A stretch of DNA of 37,137 nt from a virus (IMGVR_UViG_2703718793_000014); one strand, 5' to 3'; shown: positions 4,121 to 37,137, counted from the first letter of the stretch. A program made the numbers and translations. The notes: generated from the letters alone by a model not told the origin.

Positions 4121-4242
4121 GAAACCAGAACATGCACACACAAAAAAACCGCTTGCCATGCCGCAATCAGTCAGGTTACATTTCCGCTGCACCTCACAAA
4201 ACGGGTGCCGGGTTTCGCAGCCTGCTGACTACACAAGCGCAC

Positions 4243-4263
4243 AACCGCGCCAGCGGTTTTTTT
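4243..4263 (+). terminator. Rho-independent terminator-like hairpin plus T-tract
   Basis: AACCGC-GCCA-GCGGTT stem-loop followed immediately by a run of Ts, within the non-coding island 4121-4442. Confidence 0.45.
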
Positions 4264-4442
4264 GTGCGTACTGTATTGCCACGTTTTTTTCGCGTCAGAA
4301 TTATGGCGGGGCGCACGGGGCCGACTTCGGTCGGGCCGGGTTCTTGTGTAGCCGGTACTGCGAACCTCGTACGTCTCGCCACCCACAGTTTCGCAGCTCT
4401 GGATGGTGAGTTTTCACAACTTACTACACAAGGGGCCACACC

Positions 4443-21579: not shown

Positions 21580-23739
21580 ATGAGTACCACAACACGAAAA
21601 TTTAAAACCATTATCACTGATACTGGTGCCAAAAAATTAGCTCAGGCAGCCGCGCCAGATGGTAATCCTGTCCGCCTGACTCACATGGCCGTGGGCGACG
21701 GTGGCGGCACGTTGCCCACACCAGACAGTAAGCAGACCCGTCTGGTGCATGAGGTGTGGCGACATACTGTTAATCGCGTCATCCTGGACGCAACACATCA
21801 GAACCGCATTATTGCGGAGCTGGTTATTCCTCCTGAAACGGGCGGATTCTGGATCCGGGAAATTGGTGTATTTGATGAGCACGGCGATTTGATCGCGGTG
21901 GGCAATACTGCCGAAAGTTACAAACCAACCGTTGCCGAAGGATCCGGACGTGCACAAACATTTCGCACCATTCTGACCGTATCCAGCACTGCCACCGTGG
22001 CGCTTACCGTGGATAACACCATGGTTATGGCCACAGTGGATTACGTGAATGACAAACTGAAAGAACATGAACAGTCACGACGTCACCCGGACGCCTCGCT
22101 GACCGCAAAAGGCTTTGTTCAACTCAGTAGCGCCACCAACAGCACGTCTGAAGCACTGGCCGCAACGCCGAAAGCGGTCAAGGCAGCCTATGACCTTGCT
22201 ATCGGGAAATATACCGCACAGGACGCCACTACAGCGCGGAAAGGACTTGTCCAGCTCAGTAGCGCCACCAACAGCGATTCAGAAACGCTGGCGGCAACAC
22301 CAAAGGCGGTAAAGGCAACATATGACCTTGCTAACGGGAAATATACTGCGCAGGATGCCACCACAGCGCGGAAAGGCCTTGTCCAGCTCAGTAGCGCCAC
22401 CAACAGCACGTCTGAAGCACTGGCCGCAACACCGAAAGCGGTAAAGACAGCATATGACCTTGCTAACGGGAAATATACCGCTCAGGACGCTACGACAGCA
22501 CAAAAAGGGATTGTCCAGCTAAGCAGCGCGACTAACAGCACATCTGAAACGCTTGCCGCGACACCGAAAGCAGTGAAAGCAGCTAATGACAATGCGAATG
22601 GTCGGGTACCTTCTGCCCGTAAGGTGAATGGTAAGGCGCTTTCAGCGGATATTACACTGACGCCGAAAGATATTGGTACGCTTAACTCAACAACTATGTC
22701 ATTCAGCGGTGGTGCTGGTTGGTTCAAATTAGCAACGGTAACCATGCCGCAGGCGAGTTCTGTTGTTTCAATTACGTTGATTGGTGGCGCGGGATTTAAC
22801 GTGGAGTCACCTCAACAGGCAGGTATATCTGAACTTGTTCTTCGTGCGGGAAATGGAAATCCAAAAGGTCTTACTGGTGCGTTATGGCGACGGACATCGG
22901 TTGGATTTACTAATTTTGCATGGGTGAATACATCCGGTGATACCTATGATGTTTATGTTGAAATAGGTAATTACGCCACAGGTGTTAATATTCAATGGGA
23001 TTATACCAGTAACGCCAGCGTAACGATTCATACTTCACCAGCATATTCTGCTAATAAGCCGGAAGGATTAACGGACGGTTCTGTTTATTCGCTGTATATT
23101 TCGCCTCATGAACTTTATCCGGTTGGCGCACCGATCCCTTGGCCATCAGATACCGTTCCGTCTGGTTATGCCCTGATGCAGGGGCAGACTTTTGACAAAT
23201 CTGCATACCCGAAACTTGCAGCCGCTTATCCGTCAGGCGTGATCCCTGATATGCGTGGCTGGACGATTAAGGGCAAGCCCGCCAGTGGTCGTGCCGTATT
23301 GTCTCAGGAACAGGACGGCATTAAATCGCACACCCACAGCGCCAGCGTATCCAGTACGGATTTGGGTACGAAAACCACATCGTCGTTTGATTACGGGACG
23401 AAAACAACCTCACTATTTGACTATGGGACCAAAACTACCAGTAACGCCGGGAGTCACACGCATTCAATACCAACATCAGATGGTGCAAACCAGGGGGGGA
23501 AAATTCCACTGACATCTGGGCGTCTGGCAACTCAATATACATCAGCAACAACAGGTTCCTCTGGCTCACATTCTCATACTGTAGGTATTGGTTCTCATCA
23601 GCACACTGTCGGTATTGGTGCACACACGCACTCGGTTGCGATTGGCTCACATGGACACACCATCACCGTTAACGCTGCTGGTAACGCGGAAAACACCGTC
23701 AAAAACATCGCATTTAACTATATTGTGAGGCTTGCATGA
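21580..23739 (+). CDS. H: Tail fibre protein H
   Basis: 719 aa; conserved N-terminal baseplate-attachment region, internal tandem 44-aa repeats, and a C-terminal His-rich tip [34 protein letters not shown]. Confidence 0.9.
22108..22600 (+). repeat. Tandem 132-bp (44-codon) repeats inside H, about 3.7 copies
   Basis: Repeat units start at 22108, 22240, 22372 and 22504; each encodes KG(F/L/I)VQLSSATNS...LAATPKAVK...[17 protein letters not shown] with few substitutions. Confidence 0.85.
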
Positions 23740-24646: not shown

Positions 24647-25225
24647 ATGGATTTCAGAATGAGTGAACAACCACGGACCATAAAAATTTATAATCTGCTG
24701 GCCGGAACTAATGAATTTATTGGTGAAGGTGACGCATACATTCCGCCTCATACAGGTCTGCCAGCAAACAGTACCGATATTGCACCGCCAGATATTCCGG
24801 CTGGCTTCGTGGCTGTTTTCAACAGTAATGAGGCATCGTGGCATCTCGTTGAAGATCATCGGGGTAAAACGGTTTATGACGTGGCTTCCGGCGACGCGTT
24901 ATTTATTTCTGAACTCGGTCCGTTACCGGAAAATGTTACCTGGTTGTCGCCGGATGGAGAGTGTCAGAAGTGGAACGGCACATCCTGGGCGAAAGATGCA
25001 GAAGCAGAAAAACTGTTTCGGGTACGGGAGGCAGAAGAAACAAAAAACAGCCTGATGCAGGTAGCCAGTGAGCATATTGCGCCACTTCAGGATGCCGTAG
25101 ATTTGGATATTGCGACGGAGGAAGAGGCATCGTTACTGGCTGCATGGAAGACATATCGGGTATTGTTGAATCGTGTTGATACAACAGTAGCAGCGGATGT
25201 TGAGTGGCCAGTCGCCCCACAATAA
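24647..25225 (+). CDS. G: Tail fibre assembly chaperone (P2 gpG / Tfa family)
   Basis: 192 aa from ATG 24647 (GAGGT upstream); position after the fibre genes; translation typical of Tfa proteins. Confidence 0.8.
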
Positions 25226-32995: not shown

Positions 32996-34066
32996 ATGTC
33001 TCTAGTTACCCGCAATGTATTCATTGATACTGAGTTTTTTGTAAAAGCAAACCTGGACTTCAACTCAAAAACTATAAAATCATTTGAAGAACTATGTAGA
33101 AATGATGAGTTCAGGCATATTTCTACAACAATTGTAGTTAAAGAAGTTGAGCGAAAAATCATCGAGCATATACAAGAAGCATTGAAAGGGATTAACAATT
33201 TCCGACGAAAGGCTGTTATCCTCAAAGAATATGAAGATGACAATATTAAAAATCTATTTTGTGAAATTAATGAAACAGACATTCGAGAAAAGGCATTAAG
33301 CGCATTTAATGGTTTCATGGAGGACTCAAACACAACTATTGTAGATATGTCGAAGGTGGACCTCAATGAAGTTATAGACATGTACTTTGATAAAAAAAGC
33401 CCCTTTAGTGCGAAAAAACCTAACGAATTTCGAGACGCCTTCACTCTTTTAGCAATACGTTCCGCGCTAGGAGATAATGAAAAAATTTATGTGGTTTCAG
33501 AAGACCCTGACCTAAAAGGTTACTGTGAAGACAATGATAATTTCATAATTATAGGAGCACTAAACTTACTACTAGATGATTACAACAAACACAATGACGA
33601 AAGAACTGGATTTATAGAACGTTTTTTAGAAAGCAAAAATGAAGAAATCATACAAAAATTAACGGAAGAATTAGAAACTGCTGAAGCTTATAATTCTTCA
33701 ACATGGGAAGACTCAGAGATTGATAGCTTTGAAATTACGAACATAAGCGAATTTGAACCCAAAATAATTCATTTGGATGACGAAAGTTGTCAAATTACTT
33801 TTGATGTTACTGTTAGTTTTAATGTCACTGCCAGCGGACCTGATACCGCAAACGGCTATTATGACAAAGAGGATGGAAAATTTTATACCTTTGACACCGT
33901 ATCTAATCACGAGGAGGAGGAAAAGGATTTTACAGTAGAACTAGAATTATTCTTTGAAATAGACGAAGGCCAGTTTATCAATGATGAGTTTAATTTGCAC
34001 ATAAATGGACTGGATGCTGGTATTGAATTTTGTGTCGATGAAAACTCATGGGAAGACTATAGATAG
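32996..34066 (+). CDS. PIN-like nuclease domain protein with acidic C-terminal domain of unknown function (cargo gene)
   Basis: 356 aa, markedly AT-rich, AAAGGAG Shine-Dalgarno. Ordered PIN hallmarks: VFIDTEFF (first Asp), VVKEVERK (Glu), IVDMSKVD, YVVSEDPDLKGY (Ser-x-Asp-x-Asp). No partner gene visible. Confidence 0.6.
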   Translation: MSLVTRNVFIDTEFFVKANLDFNSKTIKSFEELCRNDEFRHISTTIVVKEVERKIIEHIQEALKGINNFRRKAVILKEYEDDNIKNLFCEINETDIREKALSAFNGFMEDSNTTIVDMSKVDLNEVIDMYFDKKSPFSAKKPNEFRDAFTLLAIRSALGDNEKIYVVSEDPDLKGYCEDNDNFIIIGALNLLLDDYNKHNDERTGFIERFLESKNEEIIQKLTEELETAEAYNSSTWEDSEIDSFEITNISEFEPKIIHLDDESCQITFDVTVSFNVTASGPDTANGYYDKEDGKFYTFDTVSNHEEEEKDFTVELELFFEIDEGQFINDEFNLHINGLDAGIEFCVDENSWEDYR

Positions 34067-34150: not shown

Positions 34151-34411
34151 ATGTTCCGTTGTCCGCTTTGTGGCGCATCTGCCCGTATCCGCACCAGTCG
34201 TCCGGAAAATGATTCAAACACCGTGCGGCAAAAGTATTACCAGTGTAACAATCTGGAATGCGGCGTATGCTTCTCAACACTGGAAGCTTTCCATAAATTC
34301 ACATCAAAACACGCCTCCGGCGTTCACTCTTCAGAAGGTATCCCGTGGCATGAACTGCCAGCTTCACACAGGGGAAACAATCAGATGAGTTTGCCTTTAC
34401 CTCAGAATTAA
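34151..34411 (+). CDS. ogr: Ogr/Delta-type zinc-finger late transcription activator
   Basis: N-terminus MFRCPLCGASARIRTSR...YYQCNNLECGVCF has the Cys-x2-Cys...Cys-x4-Cys pattern and spacing of P2 Ogr. Confidence 0.85.
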   Translation: MFRCPLCGASARIRTSRPENDSNTVRQKYYQCNNLECGVCFSTLEAFHKFTSKHASGVHSSEGIPWHELPASHRGNNQMSLPLPQN

Positions 34412-34602
34412 CAGGCAGAATTGCCGGAGCAACAAAAAAGCGATAGATTACGCGCGGGTGCCTTTCGGCTGATGGTCGGAGGGAATACCCGAAGGCCAGA
34501 TGTGGAAAGGCCCCGGAAAACATTTCTGTTTAACCGAGGCCCTAACATATCTACCTTAAGCAAGTGATAGGTTAGCGCCTCTCCAACAAAGGAGCAAGCG
34601 CT

Positions 34603-34743
34603 ATGTCGCAAAAATCGCTTACGGCCATCACGTTCTGCGTGACCGTAATCCTCATCATCTGGATGCTGCACGGTTCGCTGTGTGAAATACGGATGAGCTT
34701 CTGGGGAGCGGAGTTTGCGGCGTTCTTACAGTGTAAGCAGTAA
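34603..34743 (+). CDS. Hok/Gef-family type I toxin (46 aa)
   Basis: AAAGGAG Shine-Dalgarno; translation MSQKSLTAITFCVTVILIIWMLHGSLCEIRMSFWGAEFAAFLQCKQ has the Hok architecture: N-terminal TM helix, SLCEIR motif, E(F/V)AAF(L/M) motif. Below the size cutoff of the ORF track. Confidence 0.65.
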   Translation: MSQKSLTAITFCVTVILIIWMLHGSLCEIRMSFWGAEFAAFLQCKQ

Positions 34744-34830
34744 GGAAACCGCGACGGGGGAGTAATCCCCCGTCAATCGGTTGCCAGGGTAAGGTCGATA
34801 AGGCACCCTATCTCACAGACATGAACAACA

Positions 34831-34866
34831 AGCCCGCAGCGTAAAAACTGCGGGTTTTCTTTTTGG
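34831..34866 (+). terminator. Rho-independent terminator
   Basis: AGCCCGCAG-CGTAAAAA-CTGCGGGTTTTCTTTTT: GC-rich hairpin followed by a T-tract, downstream of the hok-like gene. Confidence 0.75.
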
Positions 34867-34978
34867 TATCCCCATCCATAAGCAATAGGCATAACAGATC
34901 GATGCAATAAATCCGATCGATAAAAACGATCGATTTGTTATCATATCGGCAGCAGTAACCACACAAGAGGTGCCGCAA

Positions 34979-35176
34979 ATGACGCAAAATGTACGATGCA
35001 AAAATTGCAACAAACTACTTGCCCGCGCCTCATTTCACTACATTGAAATAAAATGTCCGCGCTGCAAAACACTTAACCAGATAACGAGAGCCATCGAGCC
35101 CCCCACACACATGAGGAGTTATGACCGTGGGGATCGCAATCCAGCACCAACCAGCACATACACCGGAACACACTAA
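34979..35176 (+). CDS. com: Mu Com-like zinc-finger translational regulator
   Basis: N-terminus MTQNVRCKNCNKLLARASFHYIEIKCPRCK is near-identical in pattern to Mu Com (RCKNCNKLL...HIEIRCPRCK); its 3' end overlaps the start of the downstream methyltransferase frame. Confidence 0.8.
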   Translation: MTQNVRCKNCNKLLARASFHYIEIKCPRCKTLNQITRAIEPPTHMRSYDRGDRNPAPTSTYTGTH

Positions 35177-35912
35177 GGTTTATCAGACTGACAATGCCAT
35201 GCTCTGTCGTGGGAATGCGCTGGAAATATTGCCGCTGATTGAGCCAGAAAGCATTGATGCCTTAATCACTGACCCGCCTTACAGTTCGGGGGCGACACAC
35301 AAGGCCGGACGCACCAACCAGGGCAGCCATGCAAAATATCTGAACGGCGAGAACCTTCACCGCTTTGATGGGTTCGCGGGTGAAAACATGGACGCCCGTT
35401 CGTGGGCTTACTGAACACAATTATGGATGGCACAGGCACACCGCGCAGTCAGGCCGGGCGGTTATGCCCTGGTATTTACTGACTGGCGACAACTACCAGC
35501 TTTAACCGATGCGTTTCAGGCCAGTGGCTTTACATGGCGCGGCATTATTGCGTGGAACAAAGGGAGGGGGTCACGAACACCACATACCGGGTATTTCCGG
35601 CATCAGTGCGAATACATCGTCTGGGGCAGCAAAGGCCATTTAGATAAATCGCCTTCGGGACCGTTCGACGGCTGCATGACGTTCCCGGTTATCCCGTCAA
35701 AGAAAATGCACCCGACCGGAAAACCAGAAGAACTAATGGCGGAACTGGTCAGGACTGTGAATAGTGGCGGAACAGTCCTTGATCCTTTTATGGGGTCAGG
35801 GACAACGGGTGTGGCTGCACTGAAAGCAGGACGCAAATTTATTGGTATAGAAACCAGTGATCATTATTTTGATGTAGCAACACAACGGCTCAAAACGGCG
35901 ATCGAACCATAA
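35121..35912 (+). pseudogene. Beta-class N6-adenine DNA methyltransferase interrupted by a single in-frame TGA (35412-35414)
   Basis: Motif IV ALITDPPYSSG in the upstream segment and motif I LDPFMGSGTTGVAA in the downstream segment are in the same reading frame, separated by one TGA; motif order IV then I indicates beta class. Start uncertain (35121 or internal ATG 35199). Confidence 0.6.
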
Positions 35913-35956
35913 GACAAAGCCCGCAATGTTGCGGGCTTACTCTACCTCTCGAAAAT

Positions 35957-35979
35957 GTGGTCACTGCGTGGACATACGC
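35957..35979. repeat. Putative attR core: GTGGTCACTGCGTGGACATACGC, imperfect direct repeat of 11-35
   Basis: 18 of 18 positions with one mismatch plus a 5-nt extension match the sequence at 11-35; lies after the last phage-associated gene and before a differently organised gene. Confidence 0.6.
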
Positions 35980-36141
35980 TGATACAAATCCTTTTATATC
36001 AATAAATTAAATCTTTGTTTTTTTCATCAACAAGGATTTTCACGTTTGTGTTACCTGTATGAGACGAGAGTTAACCAGACAAGTGTGCCATAATCTCGCG
36101 GCCAGGCATACTTGCGAAGATTTCAGGTATAAGGATACGTA

Positions 36142-37137
36142 ATGATACAACCTATTTCCGGCCCTCCTCCTGGGCAACCACCAGGTCAGGGAGATAACCT
36201 GCCGTCTGGCGCAGGCAATCAGCCTTTATCCAGTCAGCAACGTACTTCGCTGGAAAGCTTAATGACGAAAGTGACCTCACTGACGCAACAACAAAGAGCA
36301 GAACTGTGGGCGGGTATCAGGCACGATATTGGTCTGTCGGGAGATTCACCGCTGCTTTCGCATCACTTCCCTGCCGCTGAGCATAATCTGGCGCAACGTC
36401 TGTTGGCCGCGCAAAAAAGCCATTCTGCCCGCCAGCTTTTAGCGCAATTAGGGGAGTATTTACGTCTGGGGAATAATCGTCAGGCGGTCACGGATTATAT
36501 CCGTCATAACTTTGGTCAGACGCCGCTGAATCAGCTCTCACCGGAGCAATTAAAAACCATTCTCACCCTGTTGCAGGAAGGGAAGATGGTTATTCCGCAA
36601 CCACAGCAGCGCGAGGCGACCGACCGTCCTTTATTACCGGCGGAGCACAATGCGCTCAAACAGCTGGTGACCAAACTTGCGGCAGCAACGGGGGAACCCA
36701 GCAAACAGATCTGGCAATCGATGCTGGAACTTTCCGGGGTGAAAGATGGCGAGTTAATTCCAGCGAAACTGTTTAACCATCTGGTGACCTGGCTACAGGC
36801 GCGTCAGACGCTAAGCCAGCAAAATACGCCGACACTGGAATCACTACAGATGGCGCTAAAACAACCTTTAGATGCCAGTGAACTGGCGGCGTTATCGGCA
36901 TATATCCAGCAAAAATATGGCCTTTCTGCGCAATCATCGCTTTCTTCTGCCCAGGCCGAGGATATTCTTAACCAGCTTTATCAACGGCGGGTTAAAGGGA
37001 TTGAGCCGCGTGATATGCAACCGCTGCTTAATCCTTTTCCACCGATGATGGACACGTTGCAAAATATGGCAACGCGTCCCGCGCTGTGGATACTGTTAGT
37101 CGCGATTATCCTGATTCTGGTCTGGCTGGTTCGTTAA
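36142..37137 (+). CDS. Host (non-prophage) protein, Gln/Leu-rich with C-terminal transmembrane anchor; function not recognised
   Basis: 331 aa ORF beginning after the att repeat; Pro/Gly/Gln-rich N-terminus, two internally similar helical segments, and a hydrophobic C-terminal tail ALWILLVAIILILVWLV. Confidence 0.6.
   Translation: MIQPISGPPPGQPPGQGDNLPSGAGNQPLSSQQRTSLESLMTKVTSLTQQQRAELWAGIRHDIGLSGDSPLLSHHFPAAEHNLAQRLLAAQKSHSARQLLAQLGEYLRLGNNRQAVTDYIRHNFGQTPLNQLSPEQLKTILTLLQEGKMVIPQPQQREATDRPLLPAEHNALKQLVTKLAAATGEPSKQIWQSMLELSGVKDGELIPAKLFNHLVTWLQARQTLSQQNTPTLESLQMALKQPLDASELAALSAYIQQKYGLSAQSSLSSAQAEDILNQLYQRRVKGIEPRDMQPLLNPFPPMMDTLQNMATRPALWILLVAIILILVWLVR

Follow-up and report, generated by a model that had tools for sequence, protein, structure and literature searches.

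A hok/sok-type toxin–antitoxin cassette of Hok cluster 72, lacking mok, in the cargo region of a P88-like prophage

Introduction

[quoted passage not shown] In hok/mok/sok (parB) of plasmid R1, Hok is synthesised only if mok is translated as far as the hok ribosome-binding site (PMC9841398), and phage exclusion has been cited for R1 hok/sok (PMC8621323). Escherichia coli K-12 carries hokC/mokC/sokC (gef) and hokB/mokB/sokB, both of which keep an ATG-initiated mok. A prophage-borne cassette, hokW-sokW, is found in Sakai prophage 5 (Sp5), an Stx2 prophage, where toxin and antisense antitoxin have been shown experimentally; after mitomycin C, Sok was lost and Hok was made, and deletion of hokW-sokW about halved phage release (PMC8621323).

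The family was recently surveyed by Escalera-Maurer et al. (bioRxiv 10.1101/2025.08.07.668861, a 2026 preprint), who sorted Hok peptides into clusters at 60% identity and found hok to be enriched in prophages, with no enrichment near defence systems. Toxicity on arabinose induction was observed for 42 of the 45 homologues. The preprint covers the coding sequence and, by its own statement, leaves Sok, mok and the structure of the mRNA unanalysed.

The DNA analyzed here, referred to below as the window, is a stretch of 37,137 nucleotides from a virus (IMGVR_UViG_2703718793_000014), and all coordinates are counted from its first letter. A preliminary description, made from the sequence alone, had placed a Hok/Gef-like toxin locus at 34450–34870. 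The locus is real, although the cassette begins slightly earlier than described, with the -35 element of its promoter at 34421. We put at about 0.85 the probability that 34421–34866 is a self-contained hok/sok-type type I toxin–antitoxin cassette of Hok cluster 72, that it is cargo of a P88-like prophage (Xuanwuvirus, P2 family) integrated at pdxB-flk, where it sits in the interval separating ogr from the right prophage end, and that it works by the mechanism proposed below. Its sole departure from the textbook hok/sok is the missing mok frame, a feature common to much of cluster 72.

The cassette is already known, being annotated in RefSeq and catalogued as Hok cluster 72. Its discovery value is small: RefSeq annotates it, more than one in four complete E. 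coli genomes contain it, and the toxicity of a one-residue variant has been tested. The earlier sources for the same cassette (cluster 72, WP_000078920.1 and gp52 of phage P88) describe only the coding sequence. What is added here is the placement of the Sok gene, of both promoters and of helices resembling tac-fbi and ucb/dcb, together with the absence of a conserved mok in an abundant, prophage-borne cluster.

Toxin Gene and Its Distribution

The hok coding sequence occupies 34603–34743 on the + strand and encodes a peptide of 46 aa, MSQKSLTAITFCVTVILIIWMLHGSLCEIRMSFWGAEFAAFLQCKQ. The 46-codon ORF with the Hok signature that had been described was present at its coordinates and matched PF01848 (Pfam HOK_GEF) above threshold, with 30.1 bits (the gathering score being 22) and an E-value of 3.7e-7; residues 7–44 of the peptide aligned with positions 5–42 of the 42 in the profile. 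Both SLCEIR and EFAAF fall within the peptide. Kyte-Doolittle averages gave a mean of 2.71 for the hydrophobic stretch at residues 8–22, versus 3.12 for R1 Hok over the same span, and the peptide has the putative single N-terminal hydrophobic helix and the approximate size (46 aa, for a family of about 50 aa) that are characteristic of Hok/Gef proteins. Residues C12, T14, L26, E28, E37 and A39 were invariant in an alignment of R1 Hok, HokB, HokC, the Stx-phage Hok and the window peptide. The family motif residues C12, T14, L26, C27, E28 and E37 were all present, corresponding positions in the published Hok/Gef logo being C16, T18, L30, C31, E32 and E41. The peptide fold is shared with R1 Hok at 30% identity, the window peptide being shorter (46 aa vs 52 aa), whereas identity to the K-12 HokC and HokB peptides was only 22–24%.

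As had also been described, the ORF has a good ribosome-binding site, AAGGAG at 34589–34594, 8 nt 5' of the ATG. In comparisons with relatives its pN/pS was 0.09–0.36, which means that it evolves under purifying selection.

Among 5,426 complete E. coli genomes, 1,550 contained a nearly identical version of a 461-bp segment that includes the ORF, annotated there as 'Hok/Gef family protein'. Most of these genomes had a single copy and some had up to seven matching places; identity to the segment was at least 99% in 27 records. The RefSeq protein WP_000078920.1, carrying the same annotation in E. coli O145 RM8988, is identical to the window peptide, and its locus is 99.8% identical in DNA, the sole difference being a synonymous one at 34644. 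Among phages, the best matches (96–97%) were P88 and other Xuanwuvirus members (Peduoviridae), the P88 locus (gp52) being 96.6% identical in DNA to the window cassette. A second group of phages, the Stx2a-converting phages, carries a 46-aa hok at 82.6% DNA identity.

The phage records name the ORF 'MokW-like host killing', a misleading label. Identity with hokW/sokW, as suggested by that label, was considered and ruled out: HokW begins MKQQKAM, has 51 aa and belongs to cluster 35 (Takada et al., PMC8621323). The present cassette shares with hokW-sokW its prophage-borne hok/sok organization, while hokW-sokW represents another Hok cluster and resides in a lambdoid phage. Nor is hokW the same gene as the 46-aa hok of the Stx2a phages.

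In the preprint, the window peptide falls in Hok cluster 72, from which two members were cloned, 72_1621, differing from the window peptide by V15A, and 72_1589, the Stx-phage form (10.1101/2025.08.07.668861). Both were toxic, because the three non-toxic constructs of the 45 were others. The window leader is not in the covariance-model seed of that preprint, and a literature search on hok in P2-like prophages returned nothing relevant.

Predicted Promoter, Transcript and Terminator

The hok and Sok promoters were placed by alignment and not by consensus scanning; a consensus promoter scan requiring at least 9 of 12 positions found neither, the hok promoter matching 8 of 12. The predicted hok promoter (34421–34449, + strand) consists of a -35 element, TTGCCG, at 34421–34426, a 17-nt spacer, and a -10 element, TAGATT, at 34444–34449, the latter aligning opposite TATAAT of hokC. 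Hexamers and spacing were kept in relatives with unrelated upstream DNA, where homology stops just 5' of the -35 element.

Transcription is predicted to start at G34456 with the sequence GGGUGCC and to give a full-length hok mRNA of ~411 nt (34456–34866, + strand), as judged from the start of the covariance-model match described below, the alignment with hokC and hokB, and the position of the terminator. The K-12 systems share the GGGUGC 5' end, with the -10 element equally distant. The minimum free energy (MFE) of the predicted 411-nt RNA was -176.4 kcal/mol, with z = -9.08 relative to shuffled sequences.

The 3' end is set by an intrinsic terminator at 34830–34866 (+ strand), in which a stem-loop at 34830–34857, with a 10-bp stem containing six G-C pairs, is followed by a T-run. 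The stem-loop begins 87 nt past the stop codon, close to the distance of about 90 bp first given for it. In R1, too, a terminator follows soon after fbi. Relatives in other genomic contexts had different terminators at this position, and sequence conservation downstream stopped a few bases past 34808. Because homology breaks off before the -35 element and again just after 34808, the mobile unit spans approximately 34420–34812.

Leader and Predicted Long-Range Fold of the hok mRNA

No match was obtained in the hok region when Rfam was searched at gathering thresholds. RF01794 was seen only in a search by E-value, on the hok strand at 34456–34613, covering all 157 model positions. A covariance-model search had been suggested as a check in the preliminary description, and its outcome was mixed, with an E-value of 1.4e-9 in favour of the assignment and a score (47.9 bits) below the gathering score of 59. 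Although RF01794 is named 'sok', it models the hok leader, since its consensus ends at AUG.

Elements were placed by globally aligning the window with a plasmid hok locus (pMTY1886_IncFII, L006) and with the two K-12 loci hokC/mokC/sokC and hokB/mokB/sokB. The window leader aligned element by element with all three. It also aligned in this manner with the R1 leader, relative to which it is ~27 nt shorter, with gaps of 18 nt and 9 nt.

In the MFE fold, a tac-like 5' end at 34456–34470 (+ strand; GGGUGCCUUUCGGCU) folds back onto an fbi-like element at 34793–34808 (+ strand), whose core, AAGGCACCC, is at 34800–34808, forming a helix of 15 bp, a fold-back characteristic of hok mRNAs; folding of the 5' end onto a 3' element is likewise a property of the R1 mRNA. 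In the alignment, the fbi-like element lies opposite GGCACCC of hokB, with which it shares this fbi sequence, and opposite GAAGCGCC of the plasmid hok locus. The tac-like 5' end is also complementary to 34505–34514, which is its partner in the consensus fold of the alignment.

A second long-range helix, resembling ucb/dcb, pairs a downstream box at 34776–34791 (+ strand) with 34552–34568. In this model of the full-length mRNA, the helix would cover the Sok target. When the RNA was folded without its last 76 nt (34791–34866), the 5' end was found in a local hairpin, 34552–34572 was largely unpaired and the ucb/dcb-like helix was missing, so that the predicted fold of the shortened RNA agrees with what is expected if, as in the R1 model, trimming from the 3' end activates the mRNA. 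Two local hairpins accompany these helices. One, at 34574–34602 (+ strand; -12.8 kcal/mol alone), sequesters the hok ribosome-binding site and was seen whether the full-length or the 3'-shortened RNA was folded. The other, at 34753–34774 (+ strand), lies directly 3' of the stop codon.

Comparative support came from a scan of viral contigs that revealed 80 related loci; 42 distinct whole-mRNA sequences (including annotated records) were aligned with the window, giving 43 sequences. When the window fold was imposed on this alignment, 93.4% of cells were paired, versus 38–45% when partners were slid by 1–3 columns. The proportion was 97.1% for the tac-fbi helix, 94.3% for the ribosome-binding-site hairpin and 100% for the hairpin following the stop codon, which contained two compensated pairs, with three pair types at one of the two. 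Changes on both sides were observed for 12 pairs, those in the ucb/dcb-like helix included, among sequences that are mutually related. In that helix the adjacent pairs 34566/34778 and 34567/34777 switch from GC to AU and from AU to GC in 11 of the 43 relatives, which may reflect a single event. Support for tac-fbi took the form of compatible one-sided changes only (e.g., G-U to G-C), with no compensatory pairs, the cores being almost invariant. The comparative pairing therefore lends support to the predicted fold, short of proof.

Two IMG/VR contigs (L066 and L067) had a different 5' end ~150 nt upstream of hok, GGACACC instead of GGGUGCC, with the fbi core still GGCACCC. Their fold-back would lose three central pairs, and decay or recombination may account for these copies.

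Predicted Sok-Like Antisense RNA

The preliminary description had expected a sok-like antisense RNA without placing it. One could be placed by homology, with ends projected from the sokC and sokB annotations of K-12, as a predicted RNA of ~62 nt running from ~34561 to ~34500 on the - strand. Counted from the hok ATG, the Sok-complementary block would extend from -103 to -42, compared to -107 to -49 in hokC and -104 to -48 in hokB. The predicted RNA comprises a single-stranded 5' tail of 13 nt, a stem-loop (complement of 34508–34543) and a short U-rich tail, CUUUCC. Its fold had a free energy of -28.9 kcal/mol (z -4.47) for 34495–34561 and of -22.9 kcal/mol for 34500–34561, and the predicted terminator hairpin is followed by a poor U-tract. 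R1 Sok, likewise, consists of a free 5' tail and a hairpin.

The search of the minus strand of the leader that had been recommended at the outset also yielded a candidate promoter together with this hairpin terminator. The putative Sok promoter (34569–34597, - strand) has a -35 element, TTGCTC (complement of 34592–34597), a 17-nt spacer and a -10 element, TAACCT (complement of 34569–34574), sitting 7 nt upstream of the predicted Sok start. It overlaps the hok ribosome-binding site, and in R1 the Sok promoter similarly lies over the region where hok translation starts. In the alignment, the -10 element is opposite the hexamer AGGATA in the plasmid locus L006, and the complement of that hexamer, TATCCT, we take to be the R1 Sok -10 element; it is not annotated in the plasmid record. 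Positions 34569–34581, which hold the Sok -10 element, were invariant in 43 of 43 sequences, as was the TTG of the -35 element.

Variation within the cassette is greatest in the segment at 34543–34561, which encodes the 5' tail of Sok and, on the hok strand, the leader target of that tail; here 70% of columns vary and mean entropy was 0.70, versus 0.18 in the coding sequence. Over 34543–34568, which includes this segment, the 43 sequences presented 20 haplotypes, and the downstream pairing partner of the segment was also highly variable. From this pattern of variation we infer that the hypervariable segment may set the specificity of Sok and hok between co-resident copies.

Absence of mok and Translation of Hok

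The overlapping mok-like frame that had been expected was not found. At the position where hokC, hokB and the plasmid hok locus have an ATG, inside the Sok target, the window has a vestigial mok start, ATC (34549–34551, + strand), and the frame is closed by TAG at 34573–34575. Alignment and frame analysis of the window leader revealed no mok frame reaching or overlapping hok; the frame that overlaps the hok start (34560–34685) contains no ATG, GTG or TTG before hok. No leader ORF starting with any of these codons extends to the hok ribosome-binding site, the longest-reaching one ending 27 nt 5' of the hok ATG. The ATG-initiated leader ORFs at 34472–34567 (31 codons) and 34500–34559 (19 codons) stop 35–43 nt before the hok ATG. 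A leader ORF reaching the ribosome-binding site was absent from 24 of the 43 distinct sequences, and in the others it differed in start codon and length, so that cluster 72 has no conserved mok. In this the cassette differs from R1, hokC and hokB, and it differs further from R1 in being carried by a prophage instead of a plasmid.

The relation of mok to hok is itself variable within the family, mok being in frame with hok in hokC and out of frame in hokB. In plasmid pMTY1886_IncFII (440–660), the ATG at the mok position is in frame with hok, of which the record annotates only an internal part of 33 codons.

With no mok, Hok might fail to be made from the native transcript. One explanation is that the element is a silenced relic that hitch-hikes in the prophage and may still be transcribed, its hok ribosome-binding site never being opened by ribosomes and no toxin being made from the native RNA. 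The replacement of the mok start by ATC, the closed frame, the lack of a leader ORF reaching the ribosome-binding site here or in the 24 relatives, and the hairpin of -12.8 kcal/mol that encloses this site in both folds all speak for this reading, as does the requirement of R1, noted above, for mok translation. Several chromosomal hok loci of K-12 are inactive. However, a dead element is hard to square with a Sok-target segment that diversifies yet stays paired with the downstream box. Many contexts show conservation of the hok and Sok promoters, of tac and fbi, of the long-range helix, and of the hok ribosome-binding site and start codon; the ORF is under purifying selection (pN/pS 0.09–0.36), and a near-identical peptide is toxic. 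We regard silencing as very unlikely.

Alternatively, a short leader ORF (34472–34567 or 34500–34559, both overlapped by the Sok target) could substitute for mok, its translation loosening the ribosome-binding-site hairpin and Sok blocking it as in R1. The ATGs of both ORFs were invariant in the 43 relatives, although both lie within conserved RNA helices, which alone could account for this invariance. The ATG at 34500 is preceded at 4 nt by GAAGG and is located at the 3' edge of the Sok-complementary region, whereas the one at 34472 has no ribosome-binding site. In 17 relatives, ORFs from these starts, or from a TTG at -46, continue into hok; yet close relatives differ readily in the frame, stop and length (15–87 codons) of these ORFs, and in the window both ORFs end before the hairpin. 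This route seems unlikely, though less so than a silenced element.

Since the cassette, unlike R1 hok/sok, has no mok frame, Hok is most likely translated directly from its strong ribosome-binding site after unfolding of the local hairpin. We rank direct translation first, a substitute leader ORF second and the absence of toxin from the native RNA last. A broader proposal, which we offer tentatively and consider possible but not probable, is that cluster 72 is a mok-independent variant in which Sok blocks no leader ORF and acts through decay or through a locked ribosome-binding-site hairpin, the hypervariable tail and target, which co-vary with the downstream box, serving as a code that lets several copies coexist without cross-protection. 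Were the lack of a conserved mok in this cluster confirmed experimentally, the textbook coupling through mok would not be general in the hok family.

Proposed Mechanism and Role

In the mechanism proposed for the cassette, a weak constitutive promoter would produce a stable mRNA of ~411 nt, whose tac-like 5' end folds onto fbi while the second long-range helix covers the Sok target, so that the full-length RNA would be closed to both ribosomes and Sok. Slow trimming from the 3' end would then remove fbi and expose the Sok target. The short-lived antisense RNA of ~62 nt is predicted to pair with the leader at 34500–34561 and to inactivate the mRNA, probably through cleavage by RNase III. Once the supply of Sok ended, the 46-aa Hok would be made, enter the inner membrane, and kill or arrest the cell.

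By analogy with plasmid hok/sok, the most likely role is addiction-type stabilisation of the cassette and its prophage, which we favour only weakly. Help with lysis at induction, or phage exclusion, the latter named along with post-segregational killing in the preliminary description, are possible alternative roles. With the same mechanism, the cassette could assist lysis when the prophage is induced, as reported for hokW-sokW in the Stx2 prophage Sp5, or act in defence by abortive infection, instead of in addiction. The loss of Sok and production of Hok after mitomycin C and the effect of the hokW-sokW deletion on phage release (PMC8621323) speak for such a role, as does the presence next to the cassette of other cargo, namely a PIN-domain gene and a com-methyltransferase pair. 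HokW, however, belongs to another cluster (35, 51 aa), hok was not enriched near defence systems (10.1101/2025.08.07.668861), and PADLOC gave no match for either Hok or the neighbouring PIN protein. A role of this kind is conceivable, with the odds against it. Whatever the role, the element map offers defined targets for probing the benefit of hok/sok to P2-family prophages.

Genomic Context

On its left the cassette is flanked by ogr (34151–34411, + strand), identified by a Pfam Ogr_Delta match of 52.4 bits and by the ogr/Delta-like annotation in the O145 genome. The right junction between prophage and host was set by comparison with empty sites: prophage-free genomes aligned only from base 172 of the query 35850–36300, i.e., from 36021 onward, placing the approximate junction at 36021, in the pdxB-flk intergenic site. 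This exact right junction was common to 77 of the 5,426 genomes, versus 1,550 genomes with the hok cassette. Direct repeats corresponding to attL and attR were sought in the window and not found, and attL is therefore probably outside it.

With ogr ending at 34411 and the host junction at 36021, the locus lies, as first described, between ogr and the right end of the prophage. In P2, the attP core follows ~100 bp past ogr, with only a terminator and no gene between, which bears out the earlier statement that this accessory arm is absent from P2. Accordingly, the 1.6 kb from ogr to the junction, with hok/sok, com and a methyltransferase gene, is cargo that P2 lacks. E. coli O145 RM8988 had the same gene order (tail genes, PIN-domain gene, ogr, hok, com, DNA methyltransferase and host flk), and in phage P88 hok follows a tail protein gene, less than 1 kb from the end of the genome record.

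Several other features of the window were observed. The gene for a Com-family zinc-ribbon protein (34970–35176; PF10122 in Pfam, 45.3 bits) runs into the 5' end of the methyltransferase gene, a layout reminiscent of com-mom in phage Mu. The DNA methyltransferase gene (35121–35912, Pfam N6_N4_Mtase) contains a premature stop, TGG to TGA at 35412–35414 (G35414A), which leaves two ORFs, of 97 and 161 aa, where O145 RM8988 has an intact 263-aa allele. Between the tail gene and ogr, a gene of 356 aa with a PIN_12 domain (32996–34066) had a G+C content of 33.9%, compared to a window average of 52.2%, and is probably foreign cargo.

Elsewhere in the window, Rfam matches at gathering level were obtained for isrK (4189–4263) and C4 antisense RNA (4299–4386), which suggests an antisense immunity element of the P1/P7 type in a P2-family prophage. 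IS009 RNA had a full-length Rfam match at 24990–25188 (191.4 bits), inside the tail-fibre region. Finally, three tandem units of 132 bp, 83–85% identical, were found at 22108–22601 within an ORF of 719 aa (21580–23739), where they probably form a repetitive tail-fibre domain.
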